In this document: in pieces, positions 18,598-35,598 of the stretch
How the letters are laid out: each line of letters starts with the position of its first letter
Numbering within the stretch: position 1 is the first letter of the stretch
Assembly (NCBI GenBank): GCA_964354975.1
Contig: CAYHBS010000003.1
Coordinates: forward strand, 4,086 to 68,085
Length of the DNA stretch: 64,000 nt
Direction of reading: 5' to 3'
Source: an uncultured Candidatus Saccharibacteria bacterium
GTDB lineage: Bacteria; Patescibacteriota; Minisyncoccia; Ryanbacterales; HO2-45-13
Program-made: the position numbers and the translations under genes
Notes under the pieces: generated by a model
What the model was told of the DNA's origin: nothing
The model's input: only the letters and a program-made list of their open reading frames with translations
The model's database searches: none

Positions 18598-18657
18598 AGA
18601 TTGCGATTAGTATGCCACGCGCTACCAAAAATGACAAAAAGCGTTATAGTACTCAAT

Positions 18658-19987: not shown

Positions 19988-21043
19988 TTAATATGTATTT
20001 CTTAACGTAATCTGTTCGTCCGGAGCAATATGTTGTTTCGCCCTGCGCCCAATAATGTGATTAAGTTGCTCTGGTCCTAATCCACCAATCAGTGGCCGCT
20101 TGAACAGTATATGGCTTTCGGTAATGTTTTCACCCCGAGTTATTTTTCGTGCAGCGACAATACTCTGCCCTGCCCACAGACGACTTTTATTGAGCGATTT
20201 TTTTGTAGAAAGATCTCGAAAAACCATACTTGCTTCTACATCTCGCGCCGCAGAAACAAACGTGATAAATTCATCCGACAACAATGCGCCGGGATTGTCC
20301 AATGATCGTGGGTCAGATTTATCAAAAGTAATATGTTTTTCCATTACTTTTATGCCCATCGCAATAGCAGCTAAAGGCACGTGATATCCGACCGTGTGAT
20401 CCGAATACCCTACAGGCCCCGTCACCATGTGTTGGAGCTCATAAATTTGTCGGAGTGCCGCATGTTGTGGTTTTGTGGGATATTCCGTTGTGCAATGTAA
20501 TGGAATCACCGATGGCGTTCCGCGCGAAACAAGTAGACGCACGCTGGACTGAATCTCTTTAGGAGTATGCATGCCAAACGAAATAATAACCGGTATTTTT
20601 TTTGATGCGACATGTGACAAAAATCGATGGTTATGCGCCTCACCCGATCCAACTTTAATACAATCCACCCCAAGCGCTACGAGCTTGTCCACACTTTCCT
20701 CATCGTGCGGACTCGCAAAACACGTAATGTGCTTTTTTTGTGCGTACGCAAACAATTTTTTTAAATTAGTAAACGACAGTTCCCGAGATTTCAGGCGCGT
20801 ATACCAGTTATACCCTAATTTCTTTTGATATTTTTGCGCCGAAACCTTTGAAACTAGAGACGCAGTATTCCACAGTTGAAATTTTATGGCATCGGCTTTT
20901 GCAGCAACCGCCGCATCAATTTGTTTTTTCGCGAGCGCATACTGGCCATAATTTGTCACTCCTCCCTCACAAATGATAAAAACGGGGTGACCGTCCCCGA
21001 TAGTGTGTTTGCCAATACGAATGGTGCGACTTGTTCGAATCAT
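19988..21043 (-). CDS. NeuB-family nonulosonic acid (sialic-acid-type) synthase, copy 1
   Basis: VFIICEGGVTNYGQY...ADAIKFQ at the start of the TIM barrel, and a C-terminal SAF domain (IVAARKITRGENITESHILFKRP). A GAGGTAGCT Shine-Dalgarno precedes ATG 21043. Confidence 0.75.
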   Translation of the reverse strand: MIRTSRTIRIGKHTIGDGHPVFIICEGGVTNYGQYALAKKQIDAAVAAKADAIKFQLWNTASLVSKVSAQKYQKKLGYNWYTRLKSRELSFTNLKKLFAYAQKKHITCFASPHDEESVDKLVALGVDCIKVGSGEAHNHRFLSHVASKKIPVIISFGMHTPKEIQSSVRLLVSRGTPSVIPLHCTTEYPTKPQHAALRQIYELQHMVTGPVGYSDHTVGYHVPLAAIAMGIKVMEKHITFDKSDPRSLDNPGALLSDEFITFVSAARDVEASMVFRDLSTKKSLNKSRLWAGQSIVAARKITRGENITESHILFKRPLIGGLGPEQLNHIIGRRAKQHIAPDEQITLRNTY

Positions 21044-21094
21044 AGCTACCTCAATGTATACTACTATTATACCTATTGTACGCAGTTCCATCAG

Positions 21095-21128
21095 CATAGA
21101 AAAGAGGGTCGCACATGTGCGACCCTCT
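21095..21128 (-). terminator. perfect-palindrome terminator (AGAGGGTCGCACATGTGCGACCCTCT + TTTTCT on minus strand)
   Basis: An 11-bp perfect stem with a 4-nt loop between the sqdB stop and the NeuB copy-1 start. Confidence 0.5.
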
Positions 21129-21136
21129 GTTATGTG

Positions 21137-22306
21137 TCATGGCTTCCATTTTACCGTCGGCATGATAACTTCCGGTTCGATGTTCCGCTTCGCAGCGATC
21201 ACCGACCCCATCATCTCAGCTATCACCTCGTCAGTAAGCAAGTGCGGATGCAGACCGAGCGAAATCAGTGAGGAATTCTTCGCATTGTAGTAGTGCTCTT
21301 CGCTCTCTACTCTTGGGTTTCCGATCGATGCCATAGTGGCGTCGATTCCAAACTCACTATTTGCGACGTACTGCACGCGGCGCGCCAGCTCATTCACCGA
21401 ATACTGCTCAGTAAACTGATTGAACACTCGGAACTCTCCTTTCTCCGCTGGATGTGTCACTGCAAGCTCCACACACTGTAATGTATCGAGAATGTTGAGA
21501 TATCCGCGCGTTTGACCTCCGCGACCGTACACCGTGAGCGGAACACCCGATACAGCCTGCACGATGAAGCGGTTTAGAGCAGTGCCAAATACTCCGTCGT
21601 AGTGAAAGCTCGTAACAAATCCATCCGCAAGCAACGTCTCCGGCGTATGAATGCCGTAGACAACGCCCTGATTGAGGTCGGTAGCGCGCAACCCCCACGA
21701 TCGACAGGCGAACTCGATGTTCACACTGTCTGCAACCTTTGAAGCGTGGTAGAACGATCCCGGACGCTTTGGATACAGCATTCGATCTTTTCTCCCGCGA
21801 TGCTCAATCTCGATCCACCCCTCCTCAATATCGATGTTCGGAGTGCCGTACTCGCCCATCGTCCCAAGCTTCACCAGATGCGCATCAGGCACGATATCGC
21901 GCATCGCGAACAAAATGTTCAGCGTGCCAACAATGTTGTCCGCCTGCGTACGTGTTGCGCGCGAACGAGACATCATTGAATACGGTGCGGACGGCTGTTC
22001 GGCGTAATGGATGATCGCGTCGGGCAGAAACTCTCTCACAAACCCCAACGTTGCGCCGGGATTTGCAGCGATGTCTACCACATTCCCCTGCGGGAGCGCG
22101 ATCTCCGTTCCCTGCCCCGAGCGATTCCACAATCGCACGCGTTTTTGTAGCGTCGGCCGCGAGAAGAGTGGTTCACCGCCTACTTCTTCCTCCCATCTTC
22201 GTTTCGCTAAGCTATCAGCGATCGCTACAGAGTGTCCTCGCCTGGCAAAATACATTACGGTGGGCCAACCGAGATAGCCATCTCCACCAAGCACCATGAT
22301 GTTCAT
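21137..22306 (-). CDS. sqdB: UDP-sulfoquinovose synthase (SQD1/SqdB/Agl3 family)
   Basis: Near-colinear identity with the SQD1 sequence as I recall it: MVLGGDGYLGW, SAPYSM, GTMGEYGTPNIDIEEG, ATDLNQGVVYG, DGVFGTALNRF, TVYGRGGQTRGYL, EFRVFNQFTEQYSVNELA, NPRVESEEHYYNAKN, IMPTVKWK. AGGAGG precedes the ATG at 22306. Confidence 0.85.
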   Translation of the reverse strand: MNIMVLGGDGYLGWPTVMYFARRGHSVAIADSLAKRRWEEEVGGEPLFSRPTLQKRVRLWNRSGQGTEIALPQGNVVDIAANPGATLGFVREFLPDAIIHYAEQPSAPYSMMSRSRATRTQADNIVGTLNILFAMRDIVPDAHLVKLGTMGEYGTPNIDIEEGWIEIEHRGRKDRMLYPKRPGSFYHASKVADSVNIEFACRSWGLRATDLNQGVVYGIHTPETLLADGFVTSFHYDGVFGTALNRFIVQAVSGVPLTVYGRGGQTRGYLNILDTLQCVELAVTHPAEKGEFRVFNQFTEQYSVNELARRVQYVANSEFGIDATMASIGNPRVESEEHYYNAKNSSLISLGLHPHLLTDEVIAEMMGSVIAAKRNIEPEVIMPTVKWKP

Positions 22307-22378
22307 GTATCCAACCTCCTTTCTCGTAAGTACAAACTAACCGTACGCTACGTTGAATGAAGTGTTCTGTCAAGTGTT

Positions 22379-23089
22379 TTATGAGAAATTTCCATCCGAT
22401 TGAAGCATCTCAAGCATGTGCTCTCCGCGCTCAAAATCCTCGGGACAATCAATATCAAGTGAGCGATTGTCGGGCATTAGATACGGGAGAACGTGATCCC
22501 CGTATAAACGCCCTTTCAAGAGTACGTCGCGACGCACAGCGTATACAGCACCGTTACGCCAATACACGCGAGGTAGTTCTTGTCTGCGCGTACCCTCCGC
22601 CTCAACTGCACAAAACGATTTTAACATTCCATCTTCAATCACTTTTGCTTTTGCGGGATGATGGTCGATATATTCTACAACACTCACCGCGCTATCAGCA
22701 TCAGATTCCGCAAGCAAGTTTACCACCGAATCAATATCTTCAGAAAGACGTAGGGGCGATGTGGGCTGCAAGGTCACAACAATATCGTATGTGACGCCAT
22801 CCGCAGCTTCAGCAAACTTCAGAGCGTGCTGTAACACAGGGAGATGAGGAGTATCATCAGCCGCCAATGATGCTGGTCGAAAAAATGGCACATCTGCTCC
22901 TGCGGTACGCGCAATCTCAGCAATATGTTCATCGTCGGTAGAGACAATCGTGCGTGTGAGTGTGTGAGCTGATCGCGCTGCCGTAATCGTGTAGGTAATG
23001 AGAGGATTGCCTCCAAATAACTTCACATTTTTTCCAGGAATTCCTTTTGATCCTCCACGCGCAGTAATTACTCCAAGTACCCTCATCAT
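22379..23089 (-). CDS. acylneuraminate cytidylyltransferase family (CMP-NulO synthetase), copy 1
   Basis: VLGVITARGGSKGIPGKNVK plus the rest of the CTP_transf_3 fold. Confidence 0.8.
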   Translation of the reverse strand: MMRVLGVITARGGSKGIPGKNVKLFGGNPLITYTITAARSAHTLTRTIVSTDDEHIAEIARTAGADVPFFRPASLAADDTPHLPVLQHALKFAEAADGVTYDIVVTLQPTSPLRLSEDIDSVVNLLAESDADSAVSVVEYIDHHPAKAKVIEDGMLKSFCAVEAEGTRRQELPRVYWRNGAVYAVRRDVLLKGRLYGDHVLPYLMPDNRSLDIDCPEDFERGEHMLEMLQSDGNFS

Positions 23090-24252
23090 GATGTTGGGGG
23101 ATCGTTAAATTGTTTCTGCACGTAGAGTGGAGTGGATACCAGTGCCTCAGCCATACGACTACTGGTATCGGGTTGATAATAAAAAGAGTTCTGTTCATAC
23201 TTTCCGTGCTGTACTTGAACATTAATTGCACAGTATATGGCATCTGCATCATGTACAACGTCTCGTATATGAGGTCCGCGCGGTCGGCCATTCTGGCGTG
23301 ATCCAATATTCACTACTGGCGTTCCTAAAAACGAAGCTTCTTTAATTCCTGCAGATGAATTCCCCACCAAACACGCTGCCGCTTTCATGAGACCCATAAA
23401 TTCATTTGGCGGCAAATACTTAATGAATCGCATGTGCGTTGAATGATGGTGTTCGCGAAACGAACGAATACCACGAGATACTTCGTCGGTTCCTGCATCC
23501 ACGTTTGGCCAAAACCAAACGGTAGGCAGTCCTGTGCGCTGAACCGCATGGAGCGTTGCATCAATGTGTGCGCGATTTTTTCCTACTTCAGACGTTACGG
23601 GATGCTGCATCACAAGTAAAAATGGCTTCTGAATATCAACAACGTCCCCAACACCAATACTATTGACGTATGTATTGGTGAGATCAAATGTACTTTTTTC
23701 AACAAATTCAACGTCTAAACTTCCAAAATTATATACCGTATCAGGTCGCTCTCCCATTTGCAGAATCCGTTCATGTGCTTTCGAATTTGTAGGAAAATGA
23801 ATATGCGATAATTTTGTGATGGCGTGGCGCACTGATTCATCAATACTTCCGGTCACGTCTCCTCCCTCGATGTGTGCAACCGTAATATTCATGTATGCCG
23901 CGGCAATTGCGGCAGCGAGTACCTCAAATCGATCCGCGCGGAGTAATACAATGTCGGGCTTCAGATTTTGAAACGCGGTTGAAAATTCGATAATACCAAG
24001 TCCAGCTGTTTTTGCCATTGCCACTGGATTTCCACCTTCAATCGTCATGGTAATTTGTGCTGCTGGAACCAGTTGATGTTCCTGCATGAGCTTAATAACA
24101 TCACCATATTTATCGAGCATGGCGGACGCACCCACCACAATTTGGAGTTCAACATCCTCCCGGCGCGAGAGTTCGCTCAGCAACAAGATTCCCCGCGAAA
24201 AATGAATTGGGGACGTAATGATATAACAAATTTTCCTCTTCTTGGTTGTCAT
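23086..24252 (-). CDS. UDP-N-acetylglucosamine 2-epimerase, hydrolysing (NeuC/LegG type), copy 1
   Basis: VAHIEGGDVTGSIDESVRHAITKLSHIHFP is the hydrolysing-epimerase signature; its stop overlaps the next start by 4 nt. Confidence 0.8.
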   Translation of the reverse strand: MTTKKRKICYIITSPIHFSRGILLLSELSRREDVELQIVVGASAMLDKYGDVIKLMQEHQLVPAAQITMTIEGGNPVAMAKTAGLGIIEFSTAFQNLKPDIVLLRADRFEVLAAAIAAAYMNITVAHIEGGDVTGSIDESVRHAITKLSHIHFPTNSKAHERILQMGERPDTVYNFGSLDVEFVEKSTFDLTNTYVNSIGVGDVVDIQKPFLLVMQHPVTSEVGKNRAHIDATLHAVQRTGLPTVWFWPNVDAGTDEVSRGIRSFREHHHSTHMRFIKYLPPNEFMGLMKAAACLVGNSSAGIKEASFLGTPVVNIGSRQNGRPRGPHIRDVVHDADAIYCAINVQVQHGKYEQNSFYYQPDTSSRMAEALVSTPLYVQKQFNDPPTS

Positions 24253-25361
24253 AGCAATTTCACATCAGTAAGCGTGATCGGGGAAAACTGGGTCAGTGCG
24301 TGCATTACTTGCTTCCCAACGAGCTCTGCATAATCCTGAGCAAGTGCGCCCGGAATCAGTGCACGTGGGCGCATAGCCGCAAGATCTGTCTCCTCAATAG
24401 TCTCTCCCTCACGGATATCCCGCACTACCACGAGCGACTTATTAAAAAATGGGCGAAATGTATTATGCGCCCCTTCAAATTCTTTATCAATATCCCCATA
24501 AAAGGCCTCTGGAGATGCCGCTACATATGTCCCTGAGCGCACGGCGCGTACTAGTTCCTTCATTTCATGGGGTAACATGGACACCTTATGATCCGGCCCC
24601 CACGCATCACGCGACAAACTAAAATGTTTTTCTATCATTCTCGCCCCTATTTTGATCGCGGCAAGTGCAACGTCCATTCCAAGCGAATGATCGGAAAAAC
24701 CAACAATTGCATGTGGGTACGCGTCCTTCAGATACTGAATTGATGCTAAGTTAAATACTTCAGGTGGACATGGGTATTGGCTCACACAATACAGTATAAT
24801 CGGAGTTACCCGTGCGCGTGCCAAGTGCTGCATCACTGCCTGTAACTCTTGTCGGCTCACCATTCCCGTGGAAATGATGATGGGTTTTTTGAAACTCACA
24901 AGGGTATCAAGTAGAAGATAATCTAGTACGTCCGCAGATCCTACTTTCCATAGTGACATGCCGAGTTCAGACATTTGGATTGCAGCTCCTTTACTCATGG
25001 GAGTGGTGAACATGCGCATATGCTTTTCTGCACAATATATACTGAGCGGGCGCCAAAATGCATCCATCGGAGTCTGACGCGTGTTGCGCTCAACCCATCG
25101 ATATCGATCGTTCGCAGGAAAATGTGGGGAAACAATGGGAATATTAAGTTGTTCATCAGCAACATGATGTGTCTGAAACTTCACCGCATCAACACCAGCG
25201 TCCACGGCGGCGTCCACAAGCAACTGTGCGCGACGCAGTAATGTTTCAACAGATTCTTCCTCCTCGGTCACAATAAAATTCTTTCCAATTTCAGCAACAA
25301 TAAAGACGTCCCTCCCCGATCGTCGCTCTAAATCATTCAACGTCATTGCATGCATATCCAT
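24249..25361 (-). CDS. NeuB-family nonulosonic acid synthase, copy 2
   Basis: FIVAEIGKNF...GVDAVKFQTH and a C-terminal SAF domain. Confidence 0.8.
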   Translation of the reverse strand: MDMHAMTLNDLERRSGRDVFIVAEIGKNFIVTEEEESVETLLRRAQLLVDAAVDAGVDAVKFQTHHVADEQLNIPIVSPHFPANDRYRWVERNTRQTPMDAFWRPLSIYCAEKHMRMFTTPMSKGAAIQMSELGMSLWKVGSADVLDYLLLDTLVSFKKPIIISTGMVSRQELQAVMQHLARARVTPIILYCVSQYPCPPEVFNLASIQYLKDAYPHAIVGFSDHSLGMDVALAAIKIGARMIEKHFSLSRDAWGPDHKVSMLPHEMKELVRAVRSGTYVAASPEAFYGDIDKEFEGAHNTFRPFFNKSLVVVRDIREGETIEETDLAAMRPRALIPGALAQDYAELVGKQVMHALTQFSPITLTDVKLL

Positions 25362-26803
25362 TGGTATAACGCATCCGCTACCCTTTGACTAGAGTTACCA
25401 TCCGCATATGTACATTGCTCACGTACAAGTCGCATTCTGCCATTATGATGAGTGGATGGAACGCGAAGTGTTGCGGTGATAAGATCACGCAGTTCATGTG
25501 AAGATTGAGCGAGTTGTATTCCTCCCGTCAGTATGGCATTCCGATAATGTTCCGTTCCATAGAAAAACGTTGGCGAACGAAGCGGATTGATATTTTTGCG
25601 CAACTCAAAATTAATATTAATCACAGGAATATCAAGTATTGCAGCGTCGATCGAAAAACTCGAAGCGTAACATACTACGAGGGCTGCATTTGAAAGCGTT
25701 TCTCGCAGTTGTTGGAGTTGCTCAAAATTCATATCCCAATCTCCACCACGATGCTTCGCAAATCGCTTTGATGGTATTTCGTACCGCAACCAGGGTCGAC
25801 GAGCAATTTCATCATCTTGGATTACATCGTTCGGAGGAAACCGTACAAATAATTTCCATGCGTACACGTCGCGCGCGTCCACTTCAAATTGATGTAAGAG
25901 ATCAATCATATCCCAATCAGAATTGCTAAATGCACTTCCAATGGGACTGTACAGCACTATGCGATCATTCGGATCACAACCAATACGTTCTCCGTGTACG
26001 GCTCGGCTCGCATATGGTGGTAGTTGATGTCCATAAAACGTAGCTACTTCATGGAGAGCCTCCGGACGCACGTACATATCATATTGTGGAAGCCCCACGG
26101 TACGTATGCGGCTCGGAGGAACATCTTGAAATCGTTCCATTTGCGTCACTAATACATCGTTGTACACCGTGTATTGATCTGTTAGTACACGCATTGCGGA
26201 GCGCGCAGTAATTTTATCCCAACTATTCATATAGCCCACCGTGCGTATTCCCATGCGGCGCGCTTCTTTTATCAATTCAACTTCGTCAGGATCCATTTGA
26301 TTTGCGATCATCACGAGATTTGGTCGAATAGACGAAAGAATTTCTTGATAGAAATTTCCAGTGTTGATACTCGCGTCCAATCTTCGGATAGTAGCGCGTA
26401 TGAATGGACGCGCGAGAAGAAAGTGTAAAATAAGTTTATAGTAATAAAATACTATGCCTCCCTTTGTGGCGCTCAGCATACGCGCGCGGAGTGTCGTCGT
26501 GCGAGAGCGCAACATATAATACCGGAGTATTTCAAATGTGTGCTCTCTCCAGTCCGTTTTCCCTGCTCTCCCTGAGTGCACAATAAATTGTATGCGCTCG
26601 TGTTGTATTTCATGGCGGTAGTACTCTAATCGTTCCTGATTTTTTACTAACATCACAACGCGGACATCTTCGTGTTTCAGTAAGTGCATCATGACTCCTG
26701 TGCGTAACAAATTTTTCCCTTCGATACCTTCAAAGATGGGAAGTAGGAGCGTATACGTGGTGGGCACAGTGTGTGTATGCATGAACTCGTTAGCCTTCAT
26801 CAT
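25343..26803 (-). CDS. TagF-like (CDP-glycerol glycerophosphotransferase-like) GT-B family protein, paralog 1
   Basis: Shares family motifs with the three other paralogs: G(I/V)R(T/V)(V/I)G(Y/M)xxSWD(K/N)(I/L); GLPQYDMY; VVCYASSFSIDAAILDIPVININFE (DYSS-like region of Glyphos_transf); C-terminal REQC. Confidence 0.45.
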   Translation of the reverse strand: MMKANEFMHTHTVPTTYTLLLPIFEGIEGKNLLRTGVMMHLLKHEDVRVVMLVKNQERLEYYRHEIQHERIQFIVHSGRAGKTDWREHTFEILRYYMLRSRTTTLRARMLSATKGGIVFYYYKLILHFLLARPFIRATIRRLDASINTGNFYQEILSSIRPNLVMIANQMDPDEVELIKEARRMGIRTVGYMNSWDKITARSAMRVLTDQYTVYNDVLVTQMERFQDVPPSRIRTVGLPQYDMYVRPEALHEVATFYGHQLPPYASRAVHGERIGCDPNDRIVLYSPIGSAFSNSDWDMIDLLHQFEVDARDVYAWKLFVRFPPNDVIQDDEIARRPWLRYEIPSKRFAKHRGGDWDMNFEQLQQLRETLSNAALVVCYASSFSIDAAILDIPVININFELRKNINPLRSPTFFYGTEHYRNAILTGGIQLAQSSHELRDLITATLRVPSTHHNGRMRLVREQCTYADGNSSQRVADALYQWICMQ

Positions 26804-26848
26804 AATGAAAGAATGGGGAACACCGCAAACGCGACGCTCCCCATATTG

Positions 26849-27925
26849 TTAGATCTGCTCTCCCGCCCCGACAACATCGGCGGACGCGTCCCCCGTGTAC
26901 TGCGCCCACGATTGCTCGATAACACGTAGTACATCGAGTCCGCTTTGGAGCGATAACGTATTGTTTAACGCCCCTTCCAATACCCGATCGATATACAGCA
27001 TCTCACGAAAAAAATCATCTGGTCGCGTTTTCGGGAATACACGCTCGGACATTTCGCCCGAACTCATTGCAATACGGACCACATCTCCCGTTGGATGCCC
27101 ACCGCACTGCCACTCAATCACTCCGCGGTCTCCCGTAACACGAGCGATCTTCTTGGTCGGCAGGGTCACCACATCTTGCACCACGCGACCCGTGGCCCCG
27201 GACCCCAGCCGAAACTGGAGCAAAGCGACGCGGTCGAATTCTGCCTCACCTTCGCGTTGCACATCAAGCATAGACTGGACACTCGTCCACTTTCCAAGAC
27301 CAGCCGCGAGGCAAAGATGACGGAAGAGATGCAAGGCGTGAGAATGTTCCGAGAGCGCTCCTCCGCCTTTGCGCCAGTATCCGAGATAGGAATCTTCCGG
27401 CCCGGATAGCCATGGATGCGCTGCAAATATCCCTTTCCAGTGCTCCCTGAACTCAACATCAATGGTAATAATCTCGCCAATCAACTGCTTGAAGAGTTGT
27501 TCAGTCACGAACTGAATCGACTCCGACACAGCGTGATCATACCCAACGACAACCTGCGTTTTCGGATATGACTTTAGTGCGCTGAGAAACGCAGGGAGCA
27601 CCGCGTTATTCGGGCTGGTGAAAGGCTTTTCGAGCTGGAGCACCTTTGGCCGCTCTGCAAGCGCCTCAACTGCGAGTGTCATGCGGATTTCTGGCGGCGT
27701 ACAGATGCAAATGACGTCGAATCCTCCTTTCGGTTCCGTACCGCTCTCATAGAGCGAAATACGATCGTCCCACTTTCCATACCGCTGGGGATAGATTTCA
27801 TGCTGCATACGACGCAACGCATCACGTGACACGTCAACAACGACCACATCCCACGACATGCGCCGTGCTGCCTGCGCAAGATGGTTGCCGATTGATCCCG
27901 CGCCGATGATTTTTACTCTTGTCAT
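26849..27925 (-). CDS. Gfo/Idh/MocA-family NAD(P)-dependent sugar oxidoreductase
   Basis: MTRVKIIGAGSIGNH Rossmann start (GGAGG precedes ATG 27925) and the C-terminal alpha/beta domain. Confidence 0.7.
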   Translation of the reverse strand: MTRVKIIGAGSIGNHLAQAARRMSWDVVVVDVSRDALRRMQHEIYPQRYGKWDDRISLYESGTEPKGGFDVICICTPPEIRMTLAVEALAERPKVLQLEKPFTSPNNAVLPAFLSALKSYPKTQVVVGYDHAVSESIQFVTEQLFKQLIGEIITIDVEFREHWKGIFAAHPWLSGPEDSYLGYWRKGGGALSEHSHALHLFRHLCLAAGLGKWTSVQSMLDVQREGEAEFDRVALLQFRLGSGATGRVVQDVVTLPTKKIARVTGDRGVIEWQCGGHPTGDVVRIAMSSGEMSERVFPKTRPDDFFREMLYIDRVLEGALNNTLSLQSGLDVLRVIEQSWAQYTGDASADVVGAGEQI

Positions 27926-27956
27926 TTTACTGACCTCCAAAGAATTCGTTTGGATT

Positions 27957-28700: not shown

Positions 28701-30256
28701 GCAATCACCTCGTCGGCGTCATCAAACTGGTGACGCCCCCAATTCATCAATTTTGTTTTACGATCTTCCCGAGGAATATTTGCAATGCGACGATCAATAT
28801 AAAATGAGTCCCCTTGTGTTTCCATGGCGGTGGTGGAAACCTCTTCCACGATGACTCCCGTTTCCGTCCAGAAAGAATGCCACACACCACGAGGCACCCA
28901 TAATGTATCCCCTGGAGTCAGTAAGCGTGTCTTTCCCTCAATCTCCGCAATGAGCTCCCCAGAAAGAACGTGGAATGTTTCGTCTTTTGCCTTATGATAG
29001 TGCGTTGGGTTCATCTGACCTGGAAACTGAATGATGAGTTTCTTTGCGTACTCACGGTTAATACAATCAATAATCATACATCCAGTAGTATGAAATTGTC
29101 CGAGCCCATAGTGGTGTGAAAGTTCAACTTTAAAATCATGGCTAAGTGGAATTTTTGCTTCGTTGAGCATGCCCTTTGCAATATGAATTGCGGAATAGAC
29201 CACATCCTTCTTTGTTCGGTGTTTCGGTGCAACCACGGCACTGATTGCGGTATCTTTTTTATAGTCTCTGTCAGCAATAAGTCCTTTCTTAAATGATCCG
29301 CTGGTGAGCTGCCCCGGTTGTAGCGGCATCGCAAAATATACTTGGGAGCGATCAATCACTGAACCAGCCAAAATATCCTCGGAAACAAATACTCCGCGCA
29401 TCAATGAATCAAGATCTGCACGCTCCACATCGGCAATCATTCGCTCCTTATTCTCTCCGATTGCCGCAACTGCTTCCTGATATGCCTGTAACCATTTTTT
29501 CACCTGTTTTGGCGTCGCGGAATATGCATTTAATTTAATAGTATCAGTGGCAACACCTACGTGCTTTTCAAAAATTCTGGCTCCACGCGCATAGGCAAGT
29601 CCGATTGCAGTAGTATTATTCGGATCTTCATGCGTTGAAAATCCAATAATAATATGCGGGTATCTCGCTTTTAATTTCGCGATATGATCTAAATGCAACG
29701 CATCAATAGGCGTTGGATACTGCGCAACACAATGCATTAGTGCAAAATTGATTCCGCGATGTTCGAAGAAGCTAACAATCTTATCAACGTCGTGAAGTAA
29801 CAATCCACCAGTGGAAACAATAACTGGCTTTCCAGTAGAAGCGATTTCCTCCAGCAGTGGCCAATCGTGCGCGGAGCAACTTGCCACCTTTATAATATCT
29901 ACCCCAAGATCAACTGCGACTTTGACAGAGCGCTCATCAAAGGGGGTCGCCATAGCCAGTAGACCAAGCTTTTTTGCTGTATTCAGTAATTCTTTAAACT
30001 GCTCGGTGGTGAGACGTGTATCCAAAAAACGAGGAATGTGCTTAATATCCTTCCGATTCGTGTAGCTGGGGTGAATAAACGTATCAAGGTCTCGAAGCTG
30101 AATCTTGATTGCCCCACGCACATGCATTTCTTTGGCAACCGTCGCAATCTCCTGGATTATGCGTGCTCCATGCTCCATGCTCCCTTGGTGATTATTCGCC
30201 ATTTCAAACGTAAAAAGCTCTTTGAAATCAAATTTGTTGGGTACTTGTGCGAGCAT
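28697..30256 (-). CDS. NeuB-family nonulosonic acid synthase fused to a C-terminal cupin domain, copy 3
   Basis: N-terminal ~300 aa form the NeuB TIM barrel plus SAF domain. The C-terminal ~150 aa carry canonical cupin motifs: NPTHYHKAKDETFHVLSGEL (G-x5-HxH-x3-E) and PGDTLWVPRGVWHSF (PxG-x2-H). Confidence 0.7.
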   Translation of the reverse strand: MLAQVPNKFDFKELFTFEMANNHQGSMEHGARIIQEIATVAKEMHVRGAIKIQLRDLDTFIHPSYTNRKDIKHIPRFLDTRLTTEQFKELLNTAKKLGLLAMATPFDERSVKVAVDLGVDIIKVASCSAHDWPLLEEIASTGKPVIVSTGGLLLHDVDKIVSFFEHRGINFALMHCVAQYPTPIDALHLDHIAKLKARYPHIIIGFSTHEDPNNTTAIGLAYARGARIFEKHVGVATDTIKLNAYSATPKQVKKWLQAYQEAVAAIGENKERMIADVERADLDSLMRGVFVSEDILAGSVIDRSQVYFAMPLQPGQLTSGSFKKGLIADRDYKKDTAISAVVAPKHRTKKDVVYSAIHIAKGMLNEAKIPLSHDFKVELSHHYGLGQFHTTGCMIIDCINREYAKKLIIQFPGQMNPTHYHKAKDETFHVLSGELIAEIEGKTRLLTPGDTLWVPRGVWHSFWTETGVIVEEVSTTAMETQGDSFYIDRRIANIPREDRKTKLMNWGRHQFDDADEVIA

Positions 30257-30299
30257 ATAGTAGGCGCAAATTAGCAGTTTTTTTGATAAAAGTCAATTA

Positions 30300-31730
30300 T
30301 CATTTCATGAGATATTTCCCCAATAAAGGAAGGGAGCGAACTGCGGCACGGGCGTACGTGCGATCCGTTTCATTAAAGCGAAATAACGATGAAAATGGAA
30401 ACCGCTGAATAAATCCTGTGCGCACCAAATAGTAATACTTAGATATAACGACAAATCCATAGGCAAAAGTTTCTGCAATTGCAAGTCCCGAAAGCCCCAT
30501 GATTGGAACTAACCCTAGCATCGCTCCTGCACGGACCGTCTGCTCTACCAGTGATTGGGCTGCGATAAATCGCTGGCGTCGCTCTGCTACAAGAAATATA
30601 TTTGTTAATTTGGTAAATGCAAAAAGAAACACCGTAGGAAGAAGCAAATAAAATAGCGTGATGGAGTCCGTCAGATGCGGAAACAAGATGTGCACTGCGA
30701 TCGGATACCCCACCGCCCCACCACATATCAATACGATACTCAACACTACGTAGTATTTTGTTCCGAAAACAAAAATGCGATTCATACGATCTCGATCCCC
30801 TACCACGCGGGGAATCAACGCATTCAATGTCCTAGTGGGAATAACATCCTTCAAAAGTGATGTTGCCATACTTGCGACGCTGTAGATACCCACTGATGCT
30901 GTATTCAAAAATGCACGAATAATCCACGGGCGGATATTCCCGAGCATATTCCGAATTGAAGTTTCGATGATCTGCCAACCACCATATTGTTTAATGAGTC
31001 TATATAATTGTCCTCGAGGGGCAGCCGTGAAGTTCGCCCACGCTCGCGTCGTACGCAGCGCTGGCCCGAGAATTGTGAGTACCGCAATCGTCATGCCAAC
31101 AAGTTGTCCGAGCAAGAGTTGTGTAATGGTGAGTTGATCTTTGAAAAAGAAATAACCCACAAAACACACTTCACCAAATTTTTGGAGTGATGGTCGCATG
31201 GCGAGCACTTTAAACTGCAATGATGCGGAGAGTAATTGATTCAACATGCCAAGCACCCCTTGTAACACAAATATAAGTGACAATATGCGTGCCCAAAGAA
31301 AAAACTCACTCCCATATGAAGGAAGTACCTGTGGCAGCAGCATCCACACTGCCACTGCCGGAATAAGCACAAACATCATTCTAAACAATGCGTGCTCCCA
31401 GAATAATCTTTTTGCACGCGCGTGGTTACCCTCTCCAATGGCACGAGTGATTTCATTTGCAGTAATAGACGCGAAGAGATCGTGACAAATATCAGACGCG
31501 ATGGTGAACCCAGAAAGTAAGAGCTGATACAATCCCAGTTGATACAAATCGAGTGTGCGCAGGACAAAAAATGAGCCGACGAGCCCAACTCCCTTTTTGA
31601 TAAAACTCCAAAGGCCAAGATGAAATTCGCCGCCAATAAAAGTATTGAGTGAAGGCGTATTCACTTCTTCTACTGCAATGCGTTGATACACCAACACGTG
31701 TGGCGACACATCAGAATCGGGATGCATCAT
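30300..31730 (-). CDS. Wzx-type polysaccharide flippase (MOP/PST superfamily)
   Basis: 476 aa with ~12-14 TM helices and PST-like organisation. Confidence 0.65.
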   Translation of the reverse strand: MMHPDSDVSPHVLVYQRIAVEEVNTPSLNTFIGGEFHLGLWSFIKKGVGLVGSFFVLRTLDLYQLGLYQLLLSGFTIASDICHDLFASITANEITRAIGEGNHARAKRLFWEHALFRMMFVLIPAVAVWMLLPQVLPSYGSEFFLWARILSLIFVLQGVLGMLNQLLSASLQFKVLAMRPSLQKFGEVCFVGYFFFKDQLTITQLLLGQLVGMTIAVLTILGPALRTTRAWANFTAAPRGQLYRLIKQYGGWQIIETSIRNMLGNIRPWIIRAFLNTASVGIYSVASMATSLLKDVIPTRTLNALIPRVVGDRDRMNRIFVFGTKYYVVLSIVLICGGAVGYPIAVHILFPHLTDSITLFYLLLPTVFLFAFTKLTNIFLVAERRQRFIAAQSLVEQTVRAGAMLGLVPIMGLSGLAIAETFAYGFVVISKYYYLVRTGFIQRFPFSSLFRFNETDRTYARAAVRSLPLLGKYLMK

Positions 31731-31744
31731 ACAAGTGTTGCGGA

Positions 31745-32539
31745 TTATGCACTATGCGTAAAGCGATAGAGTGCAATTGCGCCAGAATGGGCGTGATCGA
31801 CCTCCAGCGGAAGTGCGCGGTCACGTAACCAATGCAGCAAGCGATCGATGTGCGTAGCATCGATCTGGAGTCCAGAATCTTTTGCAACGCCAGGAAGCCT
31901 TCGCGCAAGATCATCAAGTAATTTCCCTCCATGCGCCCACTCATGATCAAAGGTGCTCCAGTCTAATTTCATCTGAAGTTCCTGGGCGAAAAATTCAAAA
32001 TCCTTTGGAGTAAAATAATAAATATCCGCAAGCGTGATTCTCGCGTCCATCAGTAAATACAGCGTCATCAGTATATACCCCCTGGGATTGGACCAATTGG
32101 GACACGTGATAATCATCACACCGTTGGGAGCAAGGAGTGACTTGAGATGTCGTAGTACCGCGAGTGGAGTATCCATATGTTCTATCGTGCCCATGGAGAC
32201 AATCACGTCGTACGTACCCGTAACGCGCGTCACTTCACCGCATTCGTACTGCAGTCCTGGGACGTGATATTTTGATTGTGCAATTGCGACGGCTTCAGGG
32301 GCGTAATCAAGACCCATGGCAGTTGATGCTCCGTGCTGCATCGCAAGAAATGCAAATTCTCCGGTTCCACATCCAACGTCGAGAACCCGCTTACCCTTCC
32401 AATCAAGCTCCGCGAGCACCGCCATTTTATCGACGGCATGTTTTCCTTTTGAGAGGAGTAATTTTGTGTAGTGATCATCTTCTCCTTTGCGGTACACCGC
32501 ATCGTAGAATGCCTTCAAATCGTCGTTTTTCATTGACAT
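31745..32539 (-). CDS. class I SAM-dependent methyltransferase
   Basis: VLDVGCGTGEF motif I and a downstream acidic motif II. The start is placed at MSMKN. Confidence 0.7.
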   Translation of the reverse strand: MSMKNDDLKAFYDAVYRKGEDDHYTKLLLSKGKHAVDKMAVLAELDWKGKRVLDVGCGTGEFAFLAMQHGASTAMGLDYAPEAVAIAQSKYHVPGLQYECGEVTRVTGTYDVIVSMGTIEHMDTPLAVLRHLKSLLAPNGVMIITCPNWSNPRGYILMTLYLLMDARITLADIYYFTPKDFEFFAQELQMKLDWSTFDHEWAHGGKLLDDLARRLPGVAKDSGLQIDATHIDRLLHWLRDRALPLEVDHAHSGAIALYRFTHSA

Positions 32540-32605
32540 ATTACCAATAATAATCGAATGCGCAGGCATTCTCAAGCACTAACGCTTTTGACGTGCCCGA
32601 AGTTA

Positions 32606-32642
32606 TTTGTGAATATCAGTCACGAAGACCGTCATTCACAAA
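32606..32642. promoter_or_regulatory. 9-bp perfect inverted repeat TTTGTGAAT-N19-ATTCACAAA in promoter region of MTase-wzx operon
   Basis: Read directly; it lies 31-67 nt upstream of the methyltransferase ATG. Confidence 0.3.
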
Positions 32643-32717
32643 CAATATATTTTGCGCTAGTTCCCATTGGTCACCACAATCAATGCTGATTTATATACAC
32701 ATCTACACGCCGCGCGA

Positions 32718-32766
32718 AGAACAACAAAATAATACAACAACGCTCGTCGTATTTTCGACGTTGTTA
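32718..32766 (-). terminator. probable terminator after the 2-hydroxyacid dehydrogenase gene
   Basis: Imperfect hairpin (AACAACG..CGTCG/CGACG..CGTTGTT) overlapping the stop, then a T-rich tract on the minus strand. Confidence 0.4.
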
Positions 32767-33750
32767 CAAACCAGATGTTCGTGAATTGTGTTTACGTTTA
32801 AAAAACTGCAGCACTATCGATGAAATGTAGCGTTGCGTACGCGCGGTTGCCTCAACGGTGGCTCCACCGAGATGAGGAAGTATGATGAGATTCTCGTGGG
32901 TCCGCGCGTATTCTACAAGATCGTTGTGTTGTAAGTGCGTCCCCAGTGGATCCTCCCCTGTCAGAGTATCAATGCCCGCACCCGCGATGCGTCGTGAGCG
33001 CAATGCGGCAAGCAATGCGCGTTCGTCAGTGAGCTCACCCCTCGCAGTATTAATGAAGAATGCACTCTGCTTCATTAACGCAAAATGTTTTTGTTGCAAC
33101 ATACCAATGTTCGCGTCATTAAACGTCGCGTGTAGAGATACAATATCAGATTTACGAAGCACCGTTTCTAGCGACACTTTGGTTGCGTGGTCGGCCCGGA
33201 TACGAGAACTTGCAATCTTTGGATCATATGCGATCACACGCATACCAAACGCACGTCCGTACTGCGCAACCATACGCCCAAGTCGGCCATACCCAATGAT
33301 ACCGAGTGTTTTTCCCTTTAGTTCAATCCCGGCGTACTTGCGTCGATCCCATACTCCCTGCTTTATTTGATCGAATGCCCAAGGAATGTTTCTTGTGAGC
33401 GAAAGAATGAGTGCAAAGGCCTCTTCTGCGGTAGATGTTGTTTGTTGTAATACTGCAGAATCGGGCTTAATGTGTAACACTGTAATTCCGTTTGTCGAAC
33501 AGTACGTCAAATCAATGTAGCGTAATTGGGTGGTACGCGACCCTATCACGCGAAGACGTGTGGCCTTTTTGAGTAGCGTTGCATCACATCGCACATCGAT
33601 GCCAGTAATCAGCGCATCAGCACTTCGTAAGGCGCGAAGAAATGTTGCGCCTGAAGTCGCCACCGTGACATTCGCCTTCTTTCGCAACAGCGCTCGCGCT
33701 GTTGCATCAAACTGATTTTCCGCAACAAGAATGTTTATCTGTTTTTGCAT
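32764..33750 (-). CDS. D-isomer-specific 2-hydroxyacid dehydrogenase family (PGDH/glycerate-DH-like)
   Basis: GKTLGIIGYGRLG NAD-binding motif and the catalytic-domain organisation. Confidence 0.7.
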   Translation of the reverse strand: MQKQINILVAENQFDATARALLRKKANVTVATSGATFLRALRSADALITGIDVRCDATLLKKATRLRVIGSRTTQLRYIDLTYCSTNGITVLHIKPDSAVLQQTTSTAEEAFALILSLTRNIPWAFDQIKQGVWDRRKYAGIELKGKTLGIIGYGRLGRMVAQYGRAFGMRVIAYDPKIASSRIRADHATKVSLETVLRKSDIVSLHATFNDANIGMLQQKHFALMKQSAFFINTARGELTDERALLAALRSRRIAGAGIDTLTGEDPLGTHLQHNDLVEYARTHENLIILPHLGGATVEATARTQRYISSIVLQFFKRKHNSRTSGL

Positions 33751-34436
33751 AGCTGCGAAGCAATGGAGAGATCATCCGGATCATTAATATCGTATGCGCT
33801 GATCACATCAATAGGAACACCCACTCGCTTCCCGACCTCTAGTTTCCGCTCGCTCAACAGCGGGCCGCTGCGCACCCAATAGAGATTCCCAAATGCCCAG
33901 TATGGTGTATCGGACTGCCTTGTGGGGTGCGCATAGTGGTCACGCTCAGACACAAATGTAAGGATACCAGACTCATCCATTGCGCGAATATGAAACGGGT
34001 GAAAAATACGCGGCACGGGTACGATGGTTATGCCAGAATCCGCCTGCTCACGAAGCATGCGTTCGTACACTGCATCGATTTGTGCCGATGTGACAAATGG
34101 AGACGTTGGTTGCACAACCACAACATACTCCGGCATGTCATTTTCGTGATCTCTCATCCATTCCACAGCATGCACAATTGGATCAACACCGGGTGTAGCA
34201 TCCGTTGAAAGTTCTGTTGGGCGCATAAACGGCACTTCTACTCCAAGCGACGCAGCAACCTGCGCAATTTCCGCATCATCGGTAGAAACGATAATGCGCT
34301 CTACAGATGATGCGCCCTTGAGTGCGCGAATGACATGTCCAACGAGAGGCACCCCGCAGAGCGGAACAATATTTTTTTTAGGTATCGATTTTGAGCCCCC
34401 TCGTGCGGGAATAATTGCGACGGTACGCGTGGCCAT
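33735..34436 (-). CDS. acylneuraminate cytidylyltransferase family (CMP-NulO synthetase), copy 3
   Basis: MATRTVAIIPARGGSKSIPKKNI. ATG 34436 lies 1 nt from the upstream stop. Confidence 0.8.
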   Translation of the reverse strand: MATRTVAIIPARGGSKSIPKKNIVPLCGVPLVGHVIRALKGASSVERIIVSTDDAEIAQVAASLGVEVPFMRPTELSTDATPGVDPIVHAVEWMRDHENDMPEYVVVVQPTSPFVTSAQIDAVYERMLREQADSGITIVPVPRIFHPFHIRAMDESGILTFVSERDHYAHPTRQSDTPYWAFGNLYWVRSGPLLSERKLEVGKRVGVPIDVISAYDINDPDDLSIASQLCKNR

Positions 34437-34437
34437 T

Positions 34438-35598
34438 TTAGTACGTAATACGTTTCTCAAGTAATGCGTGATTGAGTGCAACATGCTTCAGTACTTTGAC
34501 AATTTTTTCCGCCGCCCTTCCGTTGCCGTACACTTTTCCACACCGCTTGAGTGATATGCGAAATTCCTGATCGCGTAATGCAACAAGTAGTGCGTTAAAA
34601 ATTTCCTTTACCGTTGTCCCGGGGGTATCGATCACATTGAAATCTCTTAGTCTCCCTTGCTGTCGTTTTCCAATATTTACAGCGGGCAAACGAAACAACG
34701 GCGCCTCAATAATTCCAGAACTCGAATTGCCAATCAGCGCGCGCGCTTCGCTCATGAGACCCAGAAAATCTGGAGCATCAATATTTTTGTGCACCTGGAA
34801 TTGCGGTTCATGGCTATACATTTGTATCGCACGCACAACTCCTTCATACCCCTGATCGGAGCATGGATACACAATAATCGCACGAGTCCCCATTTCTTTT
34901 ACTGCTTTGAGTGTGCGCCTCATTTGCTCGAACGAAAGTTTTGGTTCCGTATTGACAGAGTGTTGTAATACAATGATGAATTCTTCTTTCGTGCCGAGTT
35001 GATATTTCTTTCGTGCTTCTGCCTCTTTTGTAAACATACGTGCCTTAATCAAATCGAGATGTGTATCACCAACAATATGAATACGCTTCTCCTCTTCACC
35101 CATGCGCAGGATTCTTCGCCCACTGTCATCGGTGGAAGGAAAATGAATGTGGGACATCTTCGTAATGGCGTGACGAAACACTTCGTCGAGGTTACCAGAT
35201 ACATCACCGCCCTGAATGTGAGCAACGGGGATTCCTAAATTATTTGCCGCAATAACCCCAGCAAGCACCTCTCCGCGATCGCCCAAACAAAGAAAAATAT
35301 CTGGACGCAAGCGCTTGAGCACCCGAGAGATTTCAGACAGCCCCTTCCCCAGCGCCACACTTCGCTCAACAGAGCTTCCATCTTTTTGGCCAAGATCGAT
35401 TTTTCCCTTCACGGGAAATAATTTTTCAACTTCAAGCAGCGTTTTTCCAAACTTGTCACTTAAATGCATATCCGTCACGACAAGTTGCAACTCTAACAAT
35501 GGATCTTTCTGAATAAGCTGCATGGTACGCATGAGGGCGCCAAAACCTCCGCGCTTTCCGGAAAGTACACAAATTTTTCTTTTCCGATGAGCAATCAT
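34438..35598 (-). CDS. UDP-N-acetylglucosamine 2-epimerase, hydrolysing (NeuC/LegG type), copy 2
   Basis: VAHIQGGDVSGNLDEVFRHAITKMSHIHFP. Confidence 0.8.
   Translation of the reverse strand: MIAHRKRKICVLSGKRGGFGALMRTMQLIQKDPLLELQLVVTDMHLSDKFGKTLLEVEKLFPVKGKIDLGQKDGSSVERSVALGKGLSEISRVLKRLRPDIFLCLGDRGEVLAGVIAANNLGIPVAHIQGGDVSGNLDEVFRHAITKMSHIHFPSTDDSGRRILRMGEEEKRIHIVGDTHLDLIKARMFTKEAEARKKYQLGTKEEFIIVLQHSVNTEPKLSFEQMRRTLKAVKEMGTRAIIVYPCSDQGYEGVVRAIQMYSHEPQFQVHKNIDAPDFLGLMSEARALIGNSSSGIIEAPLFRLPAVNIGKRQQGRLRDFNVIDTPGTTVKEIFNALLVALRDQEFRISLKRCGKVYGNGRAAEKIVKVLKHVALNHALLEKRITY

Follow-up and report, generated by a model that had tools for sequence, protein, structure and literature searches.

Introduction

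Many cells display nonulosonic acids as the outermost, charge-bearing sugars of their surface, and these sugars govern recognition by hosts, phages and partners. The closest described systems include the canonical neuBCA genes of Escherichia coli K1 and Neisseria meningitidis (structures 1xuu and 1xuz of the meningococcal synthase, NmNeuB) and the routes to the 9-phosphates of N-acetylneuraminic acid (Neu5Ac) and of the deaminated sugar 2-keto-3-deoxynononic acid (Kdn), namely the Kdn-9-P synthase and phosphatase of Bacteroides thetaiotaomicron and animal NANS and NANP. Among sulfosugar enzymes, the known UDP-sulfoquinovose synthase genes (SQD1/SqdB/Agl3, serving the sulfolipid sulfoquinovosyl diacylglycerol, SQDG, or the Sulfolobus N-glycan) sit with SQDG synthases (sqdX/SQD2, sqdD) or with N-glycosylation genes. 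Here we compare these systems with a 64-kb stretch of contig CAYHBS010000003.1 from an uncultured groundwater bacterium recorded as Candidatus Saccharibacteria (the window), whose NCBI protein records (MEK7659976-MEK7660008) are labelled Patescibacteria group bacterium; Patescibacteria live attached to other cells and have a minimal metabolism. The acidic-sugar section of the window (19988-35598, ~16 kb) encodes, on the minus strand, three NeuB-family synthases, three CTP_transf_3 cytidylyltransferases and two NeuC-type hydrolysing 2-epimerases, and forms part of a ~43-kb surface-glycan locus of the Wzx/Wzy type (16384-61986).

Several nonulosonic acid pathways in one genome are already known. 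Campylobacter coli 76339 has neuB1, neuB2/legI and neuB3/pseI, and in C. jejuni/coli three NeuB paralogs with matching activating enzymes provide three different nonulosonic acids for surface structures, Neu5Ac being the neuB1 product and neuB2 and neuB3 corresponding to legI and pseI (10.1101/254235). The window resembles these genomes in its three paralogs and matching activating enzymes. It differs from them in that the Campylobacter sets occupy separate loci (lipooligosaccharide versus flagellar glycosylation) whilst those of the window share one operon-like locus; in that two of the Campylobacter sets are legionaminic (Leg) and pseudaminic (Pse) acid routes with aminotransferases and acetyltransferases, whilst the window has no Leg/Pse precursor enzymes; and in that two of the three window modules are of uncharacterised types. 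What sets the window apart is the gathering of such pathways in one locus of an ultra-small bacterium, with no Leg/Pse route and with two uncharacterised, widespread cassettes. Two further systems bear on single parts of the locus: the Serratia marcescens capsule NeuB carries a fused sugar-phosphate isomerase domain, has no neuC beside it and yields Kdn over Neu5Ac at ~20:1 (PMC9000132), and the BFO_1060 family comprises TagB-like transferases of Pse/Leg derivatives from Tannerella forsythia (PMC5420450). Literature searches returned no paper joining nonulosonic acids to the candidate phyla radiation (CPR), nothing on biosynthesis for Patescibacteria and sialic acid, no paper linking sulfoquinovose to nonulosonic or sialic acids, and nothing relevant on NeuB joined with a cupin.

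We consider it probable, with some reservation, that the section comprises three independent, anciently diverged modules (A, Neu5Ac-type; B, Kdn-type; C, sulfonated) served by TagB/TagF-like transferases. A more specific proposal, of which we are slightly more doubtful than confident, is that the SQD1, NeuC-2, NeuB-1, CS3 and 2-hydroxyacid dehydrogenase genes of module C, a set also found in many other phyla, build a C-sulfonated nonulosonic acid from UDP-sulfoquinovose (9-deoxy-9-sulfo-Kdn or -Neu5Ac), and that the NeuB-cupin/MocA/HAD cassette represented by module B makes a Kdn-type sugar in hundreds of species.

Gene content and divergence of the acidic-sugar section

The genes of the three modules, with their best family evidence, are as follows (E-values follow the model names).
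19988-21043 (open reading frame, ORF, to 21097), minus: NeuB-1, module C, NeuB plus SAF synthase of the SQD1-linked class (PF03102, 2e-62, plus SAF)
21103-21128, minus: perfect 11-bp-stem palindrome with T-rich tail in the SQD1/NeuB-1 gap (terminator-like scan)
21137-22306, minus: UDP-sulfoquinovose synthase, SQD1/SqdB ortholog, module C (452 bits to Arabidopsis SQD1, 1qrr; NF041015, 2e-125)
22379-23089, minus: CS1, cytidylyltransferase, module A (PF02348, 6e-23; 4-bp overlap with NeuC-1)
23086-24252, minus: NeuC-1, hydrolysing UDP-GlcNAc 2-epimerase, module A (PF02350, 9e-66; TIGR03568, 346 bits versus 236)
24249-25361, minus: NeuB-2, canonical-type NeuB plus SAF synthase, module A (PF03102, 2e-59)
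26849-27925, minus: GFO/IDH/MocA-family oxidoreductase, module B (PF22725 and PF01408)
27957-28700, minus: CS2, cytidylyltransferase, module B (PF02348, 3e-25; 4-bp overlap with NeuB-3)
28697-29212, minus: cupin domain of the NeuB-3 fusion (28697-30256), aa 349-519, sugar-isomerase-like (Cupin_2, 5e-14; Lyx_isomer, 38 bits versus gathering threshold 20.8)
29237-30256, minus: NeuB-3 synthase domain, aa 1-340 of the fusion (PF03102, 2e-43; 315 bits to PDB 3g8r, 'probable SpsE')
30300-31730, minus: Wzx-type flippase (PF01943)
31745-32575, minus: S-adenosylmethionine (SAM) methyltransferase MT276, by profile match; often 5' of the NeuB-cupin gene in relatives
32764-33750, minus: D-2-hydroxyacid dehydrogenase resembling phosphoglycerate dehydrogenase (PGDH), module C (PF02826, 3e-52; PDB PGDH matches)
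33735-34436, minus: CS3, cytidylyltransferase, module C (PF02348, 4e-24, ORF to 34484)
34438-35598, minus: NeuC-2, hydrolysing 2-epimerase, module C (PF02350, 6e-76; TIGR03568, 364 bits versus 236)

An earlier note on this DNA, made from the letters alone, had claimed the three NeuBs, three cytidylyltransferases and two epimerases on one strand, and Pfam and NCBIfam models confirm all eight at these positions. PF03102 and PF02348 are matched by every copy, and both epimerases pass the NeuC equivalog model TIGR03568 (cut-off 235.9 bits), scoring far lower on the wecB model (NeuC-1, 56 bits; NeuC-2, 106 bits). The SAF domain that was also sought is present in NeuB-1 and NeuB-2; NeuB-3 has no Pfam SAF match and has a cupin end instead. 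Two shorter starts are preferred, as the earlier note had them: 21043 for NeuB-1 (rather than the ORF limit, 21097) fits the ortholog alignment, and 34436 for CS3 (rather than 34484) agrees with 233-aa gene calls. Additional to that note are the cupin end of NeuB-3, the SQD1 gene and the 2-hydroxyacid dehydrogenase gene.

No NeuB copy reaches the NeuB equivalog cut-off of TIGR03569 (266, 226 and 135 bits; cut-off 399.65) or that of PseI (206, 185 and 136 bits; cut-off 340), and no cytidylyltransferase reaches that of PseF (159, 114 and 141 bits; cut-off 206). As such, these proteins are family members rather than orthologs of characterised enzymes; characterised NeuB, LegI and PseI references were compared through hidden Markov model and PDB score profiles. 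All three cytidylyltransferase translations carry the motif PARGGSKG(I/V)P.KN at the N-terminus, and the metal, phosphoenolpyruvate (PEP) and catalytic positions of NmNeuB (E25, K53, Q55, K129, S132, S154, Y186, S213, H215 and H236) are kept in NeuB-1, NeuB-2 and NeuB-3 and in their clades, residue roles being taken in part from PMC8208679 and NmNeuB numbering being reconstructed from a sequence alignment.

Pairwise identities within the window are 27-30 % for the NeuBs, 30-36 % for the cytidylyltransferases and 35 % for the NeuCs, whilst orthologs in other genomes are closer, at 40-64 %; the modules are therefore old and non-redundant. Recent duplication was rejected on these figures (27-36 % versus 40-64 %), as the earlier note had supposed, and so was misassignment of KDO8P or DAHP synthases, the NeuB copies matching PF03102. 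Every module has a PEP-condensing NeuB-type synthase and a CTP-dependent activating enzyme to itself and would therefore be expected to yield a distinct CMP-activated ulosonic acid; more than one acidic surface sugar, likewise foreseen in the note, is the most economical reading of three diverged modules. That all three modules make one sialic acid, being kept for dosage or differential regulation, is highly improbable: the same Pfam families recur throughout and both NeuCs pass one equivalog model, but the paralogs are only 27-36 % identical, domain architecture and accessory genes differ between modules, substrate-loop residues differ, and each module is conserved separately in other genomes.

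The assignment of genes to modules follows synteny in comparison loci (handles L plus number), which were gathered with NeuB-based or SQD1-based queries and whose genes were assigned from stop-to-stop ORFs and their best BLASTP matches to window proteins; counts out of 80 refer to the neighbourhoods of the best 80 genome matches to the NeuB-cupin fusion. The pairing that the earlier note had implied for the sets outside module A was not borne out: synteny joins NeuB-3 with CS2 and MocA, with no epimerase, and joins NeuC-2 and CS3 with the distant NeuB-1 and SQD1.

In the ORF listing, minus-strand genes run uninterrupted from 19988 to ~61986. Five separately assembled contigs from Hainich groundwater samples, including 0.1-µm filter fractions, show identical gene order, and an assembly artefact was therefore rejected. 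The DNA is shown to be bacterial by its genes for SecA, MurB and a GARS-like protein; neither the tRNA nor the Rfam scan gave a match in the window.

Module A, a canonical Neu5Ac-type set

Module A (22379-25361) is a canonical Neu5Ac-type set by family membership and canonical residues, and it is the set that the earlier note had likened to neuC-neuB-neuA. Its three genes overlap by 4 bp at both junctions (24249-24252 and 23086-23089). NeuB-2 keeps the canonical xGPDH substrate loop (as WGPDH) and the equivalents of R314 and F288, and has NmNeuB as its top PDB match. The order of a TagB/TagF-like gene (U486, described below), NeuB-2, NeuC-1 and CS1 recurs in L017. A pool of UDP-N-acetylglucosamine (UDP-GlcNAc) is implied by the MurB encoded in the window, and the module would follow the textbook route from UDP-GlcNAc through N-acetylmannosamine and Neu5Ac to CMP-Neu5Ac.

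With the neuBCA genes of E. coli K1 and N. meningitidis, module A thus shares the three enzyme families, translational coupling, the canonical loop and the R314 equivalent. It differs from them in that NeuB-2 scores only 134 bits against NmNeuB, lies below the TIGR03569 cut-off and carries E134D, a substitution found in 29 % of environmental NeuBs (PMC8208679), and in that the module has no neuD or neuS, the adjoining transferase candidate being TagB-like and outside the known sialyltransferase families.

Module B, a NeuB-cupin cassette

NeuB-3 is a 519-aa fusion of a synthase (N-terminal 340 residues) with a 170-residue C-terminal cupin. Its synthase part scores 315 bits against the unannotated structure 3g8r and only 82 bits against NmNeuB; it has no canonical xGPD(H) loop and no equivalent of R314. 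Within its clade E134 is replaced by S, R314 by M and F288 by S/T, and D247 is lost, so that the residues which contact the N-acetyl group in NmNeuB (R314, F288) are replaced in NeuB-3. R314 is essential in NmNeuB and E134 sits where a 6-phosphate would be, whilst eukaryotic synthases that use phosphosugars carry E134D and R314V (PMC8208679). The putative metal site of the cupin (H419/H421/E426/H460) is invariant in 22 homologs, the domain passes the Pfam Lyx_isomer threshold (PF07385), and its profile matches the D-lyxose isomerases 2y0o and 7nzo (E-values ~1e-8) and mannose-6-phosphate isomerase (2e-5) in the PDB.

The family is large and well conserved, with more than 100 database clusters at 57-65 % identity. 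At least 316 species-level genomes from different phyla encode the fusion; Patescibacteria make up most of them, the remainder including Salinisphaera, Anaerosacchariphilus, Elusimicrobia, Binatia and Bacteroidetes. MocA adjoins the NeuB-cupin gene in 56/80 loci, and a HAD_2-type phosphatase lies directly downstream of it in 52/80. A cytidylyltransferase is present in nearly all 80, with CS2-type or CS1-type neighbours in most, MT276 orthologs (46-52 % identity) adjoin the fusion in 16/80, and NeuC is not required in the cassette. A PDB sequence search with the MocA protein gave no informative relative.

Taken together, the product of module B (26849-30256) is probably a Kdn-type sugar, given that the conserved cassette does not need an epimerase and that the Serratia NeuB-isomerase fusion, without neuC, yields mainly Kdn. 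The fused isomerase would supply a non-aminated hexose or hexose phosphate, with processing by the HAD phosphatase in most relatives, and the resulting Kdn-type (deaminated) nonulosonic acid might be further oxidised or epimerised by MocA. Module B shares with S. marcescens KL1/KL2 neuA-neuB the NeuB-isomerase fusion and the cytidylyltransferase without neuC; it differs in that the Serratia isomerase is of the COG1082 TIM-barrel type rather than a cupin and in that MocA and HAD partners are not reported for the Serratia system (PMC9000132). The 9-phosphate routes likewise use a NeuB-type synthase followed by a HAD phosphatase and a CMP-synthetase, an order matched by the HAD_2-type gene of module-B relatives, but the window has no such phosphatase, and the fused cupin and MocA have no counterpart in those routes.

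The resemblance of the cupin to D-lyxose isomerases raises a different prospect, that NeuB-3-cupin makes, instead of a nine-carbon sugar, another 3-deoxy-2-ulosonic acid, for example one of eight carbons built on D-lyxose or another pentose that the fused lyxose-isomerase-like domain would produce. The loss of D247 and the change of E134 may point to a substrate of another size, and no NeuB clade lies further than this one from characterised members (82 bits against NmNeuB). On the other hand, all NeuB-family enzymes characterised so far make nonulosonic acids, D-lyxose isomerases also interconvert fructose and mannose (going by the name of PDB 7nzo), and the Serratia fusion is associated with Kdn; we therefore regard an eight-carbon product as improbable and prefer the Kdn-type reading.

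In an otherwise identical strain (L003:7227-9824; ENA ERZ1292618, 3.5x coverage), MocA and U486 are called as fragments of 295, 50, 84 and 390 aa, reflecting either low-coverage sequencing error or a variant in which both are pseudogenes.

Module C, an SQD1-linked set

The SQD1 gene lies between CS1 and NeuB-1. Its protein aligns over its full length with Arabidopsis SQD1 (residues 2-388 on 3-383 of 1qrr, 452 bits, ~57 % identity), with the catalytic residues T145, Y182, H183 and K186 aligned and identical, and scores 419 bits, full-length, on the NF041015 equivalog, below its cut-off of 575. It thus shares sequence and catalytic residues with the SQD1/SqdB/Agl3 enzymes of sulfolipid and N-glycan synthesis; it differs from them in its operon coupling with NeuB, NeuC and CMP-transferase genes, an arrangement seen both in this genome and in many others. 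In relatives, NeuB-1, NeuC-2 and CS3 group with SQD1 and one of two kinds of dehydrogenase gene, either the PGDH-like 2-hydroxyacid type or a GalE-like short-chain dehydrogenase/reductase (SDR). This gene set is found in CPR loci L011, L012, L016, L033, L034, L048 and L055 and in the gammaproteobacterial metagenome-assembled genome (MAG) L047; NeuC-2-type orthologs (42-50 % identity) and CS3-type orthologs lie in SQD1 loci, and a 2-Hacid_dh gene lies within the SQD1-NeuB operons of L088, L091-L093, L170, L171 and L173. The dehydrogenase gene of the window is translationally coupled to CS3.

Linkage was sampled in both directions. In a metagenome scan seeded with NeuB-1 orthologs, SQD1 lay within 10 kb in 10/11 loci with a NeuB-1 at 41-51 % identity, as against 5/42 more distant NeuBs (Fisher p 1.5e-6, shared ancestry ignored); GC content of the SQD1-positive loci ranged from 32 to 69 %. 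Conversely, of six SQD1 homologs chosen solely for long contigs, five had a NeuB plus SAF gene immediately downstream (overlapping or <10 bp away), and these five operons, one from a Hyphomicrobiales MAG, also hold NeuC, CTP_transf_3 and 2-Hacid_dh or SDR genes.

NeuB-1 carries HITFDKSDPRSLDNPGAL (DPRSLDNPG type) in place of the canonical xGPDH substrate loop, with the catalytic and PEP/metal residues kept. Where a locus offers at least 4 kb of flanking sequence, the loop class of its NeuB genes follows linkage closely:
SQD1-linked NeuBs: non-canonical loop, 25; canonical xGPD(H) loop, 2
NeuBs not SQD1-linked: non-canonical loop, 4; canonical xGPD(H) loop, 51
The corresponding proportions of non-canonical loops are 25/27 and 4/55 (Fisher p ~1e-14, without phylogenetic correction). 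The two linked genes with a canonical loop are additional NeuBs; in their loci the copy next to SQD1 is non-canonical. The linked loops are of two types, FDKxD(P/K)RS(L/F)D(N/C)PG (that of the window) or VP(N/D)AQDW(K/R)VS, and both place an additional basic residue near the D247 position.

The simplest explanation of this linkage and loop signature is that the SQD1 sulfosugar is the precursor of the NeuB-1 substrate, and these observations suggest that module C makes a sulfonated nonulosonic acid. SQD1 would make UDP-sulfoquinovose, NeuC-2 would release the sulfosugar and 2-epimerise it, NeuB-1 with its remodelled loop would join it to PEP to give a 9-deoxy-9-sulfo nonulosonic acid, and CS3 would activate the product. 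In CPR relatives a CysH above its equivalog cut-off (184 versus 154 bits) adjoins SQD1 and could supply sulfite; the window has no such gene.

Under the main rival reading, the product of module C is an ordinary, non-sulfonated nonulosonic acid and SQD1 serves only a separate sulfoquinovose residue of the same glycan, the clustering reflecting neighbouring sugars of one repeat unit. Glycan loci routinely interleave genes for different sugars, and sulfoquinovose as a glycan residue has precedent in Sulfolobus N-glycans. The window has more than ten glycosyltransferase genes of the GT4 and GT2 families able in principle to use UDP-sulfoquinovose, and GT4 and GT2 genes also lie nearby in L170. 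Moreover, NeuC-2 passes the NeuC equivalog cut-off for UDP-GlcNAc, and NeuB-1 keeps the R314 equivalent. Nevertheless, a separate residue would leave unexplained both the translational coupling of SQD1 and NeuB across phyla and the loss of the canonical GPDH loop in two separate classes of SQD1-linked NeuBs. It also does not account for the L171 and L173 operons, which combine a CMP-sugar transferase resembling KpsC/S with a B12 radical-SAM methylase and an ABC exporter and show no recognisable UDP-sugar glycosyltransferase, and it would make module A duplicate the product of module C. On balance we find this rival rather unlikely and retain the sulfonated product as the preferred, tentative reading.

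A number of points nevertheless weigh against the proposals made here for modules B and C and for the locus as a whole. All three NeuBs and all three cytidylyltransferases score below their NCBIfam equivalog cut-offs, and the linkage statistics ignore shared ancestry and derive from loci collected through NeuB-based queries. For module B, the highest-scoring structural matches of the cupin are generic cupins, only the lyxose-isomerase matches covering the N-terminal extension, and tblastn of the 64-kb window with relatives' orthologs found no HAD phosphatase, which most module-B relatives have. For module C, the genes are split by ~10 kb in this genome (32764-35598 and 19988-22306), a terminator-like hairpin (21103-21128) stands between SQD1 and NeuB-1, the GalE-like SDR of many relatives is lacking from the window, and the same tblastn approach found no 3'-phosphoadenosine-5'-phosphosulfate (PAPS) reductase in the 64 kb, many relatives having one. 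The R314 equivalent kept in NeuB-1 fits an N-acetylated substrate better than sulforhamnose and NeuC-type enzymes are known solely for 2-acetamido UDP/GDP sugars, whilst the product of plant-like SQD1 is a 2-hydroxy sugar. The roles of MocA and of the 2-hydroxyacid dehydrogenase are not explained by the proposed routes.

The palindrome at 21103-21128 and a second hairpin between the MocA gene and U486 (26813-26844) are GC-rich, long, on the coding strand and placed exactly within intergenic gaps; both may divide a long operon internally, whether as terminators, as attenuators or as sites of RNA processing.

Among the SQD1 loci, L171:1-17158 and L173:1-15670, both of proteobacterial type, begin with a helix-turn-helix/NusG-like (UpxY/RfaH-type) pair; their radical-SAM gene resembles B12-binding C-methyltransferases (KedN5 family match), and they add several SAM methyltransferases to the KpsC/KpsS-like Capsule_synth gene and the exporter, the whole resembling a capsule-like system around the putative sulfonated acid. 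Sulfotransferase-family genes occur in the SQD1-NeuB loci L169 (5801-6745) and L170 (12822-13505), and a TauE sulfite-exporter-family gene in L172 (11578-12369), the only SQD1 locus without NeuB, so that sulfur chemistry seems a recurring theme of SQD1 glycan loci.

Legionaminic and pseudaminic acid routes

The earlier note had allowed that the sets outside the canonical one might make Leg- or Pse-type sugars, that is, di-N-acyl sugars. Some features are in keeping with this: the top PDB match of NeuB-1 is PseI (8h2c, 141 bits), PseF is the best-scoring model for all three cytidylyltransferases, a single DegT aminotransferase gene and several SDR genes are found at a distance of 6-12 kb, and NeuC homologs, of which the window has two, are known to serve Leg pathways. 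The precursor pathway, however, is missing. A search of the whole 64-kb window with Pfam and NCBIfam found neither an N-acetyltransferase (hexapeptide or GNAT) nor PseG nor a PseB/PglF-type (Polysacc_synt_2) dehydratase; the sole DegT falls far short of both PseC (213 bits, cut-off 423) and LegC (172 bits, cut-off 420), as do the SDRs of LegB (at most 112 bits, cut-off 475). The Leg/Pse suggestion is thus left without a precursor pathway, and the DegT and SDRs belong to a separate deoxysugar sub-cluster of the C-methyl/RmlC type. Furthermore, DegT lies near the NeuB-cupin cassette in only 6/80 loci, and in the metagenome sample it accompanies canonical-loop NeuBs rather than the NeuB-1 class. 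We accordingly judge a Leg/Pse product quite improbable.

The sub-cluster itself (41392-47484, minus) comprises the DegT, three SDRs (one of 249 aa), a 226-aa protein without a family match, a C-methyltransferase (Methyltransf_14) and an RmlC/WbcJ-like cupin, with no nucleotidyltransferase or acetyltransferase, which suggests a C-methylated amino-deoxyhexose in the same glycan.

Rarity and significance

The earlier note had called several such pathways unusual for a tiny genome. This holds for the number of synthases, three NeuB genes within ±10 kb being found in only 3/160 comparison loci (L041, L097 and L140), but not for the presence of more than one pathway, given that two-module loci are frequent (12/80) and that, among the best 80 matches, NeuB-cupin is commonest in Patescibacteria. 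L041 (Gammaproteobacteria MAG CAZCAB010000002.1) has three NeuB-family genes within 21 kb together with two NeuC-type genes, three cytidylyltransferases and a NeuB-cupin; L097 (Ga0209515_10000900) likewise has three within 21 kb, as a NeuB-cupin cassette and two SQD1-class NeuBs.

With ~16 kb devoted to three putative acidic sugars and ~43 kb to the glycan, the surface chemistry of this bacterium stands out as a candidate means of attaching to hosts or evading phages. Of the modules, two belong to widespread cassettes without a characterised member. If correct, the proposal for module C would add a class of carbon-sulfur-bonded, sialic-acid-like sugars not yet described and would open a new sulfur-cycle sink for sulfoquinovose-type chemistry. 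With the loop signature, thousands of genes labelled 'N-acetylneuraminate synthase family' can also be annotated with greater precision.

Candidate transferases and surrounding glycan genes

The other features of the locus are as follows.
16384-18597, minus: Wzy_C/O-antigen-ligase-like protein, bounding the locus
18601-19986, plus: Bac_transf initiating sugar-phosphate transferase, bounding the locus
25343-26803, minus: U486, TagB/TagF-like GT-B protein, candidate CMP-ulosonate transferase; paralog of three others (weak NF046086 match)
26813-26844, minus: hairpin with 14-bp stem between the MocA gene and U486 (terminator-like scan)
35595-36347, minus: SAM methyltransferase (profile match)
36340-37692, minus: U450, TagB/TagF-like GT-B protein, candidate CMP-ulosonate transferase; 25 % identity to U486 (E-value 2e-41) and 30 % to Gph459 (9e-53) (weak NF046086 match)
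37704-38714, minus: LPG_synthase_TM, flippase-like membrane protein (PF03706, TIGR00374)
49968-52741, minus: two TagF-like (Glyphos_transf) paralogs (PF04464; NF046086, 32 and 60 bits)

The four TagB/TagF-like proteins, namely U486, U450 and the Glyphos_transf pair, are paralogs of one another (22-30 % identity, E-values 1e-19 to 1e-52). Two of the four pass PF04464, which the U486 ortholog in L006 also carries, and all four weakly match NF046086, the BFO_1060 family model. They resemble the T. forsythia transferases (Tanf_01245/BFO_1060; PMC5420450) in being TagB/TagF-type GT-B proteins with genes beside those for nonulosonic acids and in these weak matches, differing in that they score only 27-60 bits against a cut-off of 200. 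All four are likely candidates for the CMP-sugar transferases of the locus.

The Wzy_C-like and Bac_transf pair also flanks related loci. The interior of the locus further holds the Wzx flippase, several SAM methyltransferases and, further along, a GT2 gene and a PMT_2-like protein. Nine GT4 genes occupy 52738-63179, eight of them as a minus-strand tandem array and the ninth (61920-63179) divergently oriented on the plus strand, an unusually long run for a reduced genome.

Towards the window edges, a 1016-aa protein with a C-terminal CBM_4_9 domain (1860-4910) and a partial PKD/Lamin-tail-domain protein (63148-63969, at the window edge) may be surface or adhesion proteins beside the glycan locus. 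At 8238-8966 a 242-aa ORF, which may be AlaX-like or a truncated fragment, aligns with the alanyl-tRNA synthetase profile solely at the far C-terminal end of that profile (tRNA-synt_2c 474-552); it lies in the region of lowest GC content in the window (0.40 at 8001-10000).

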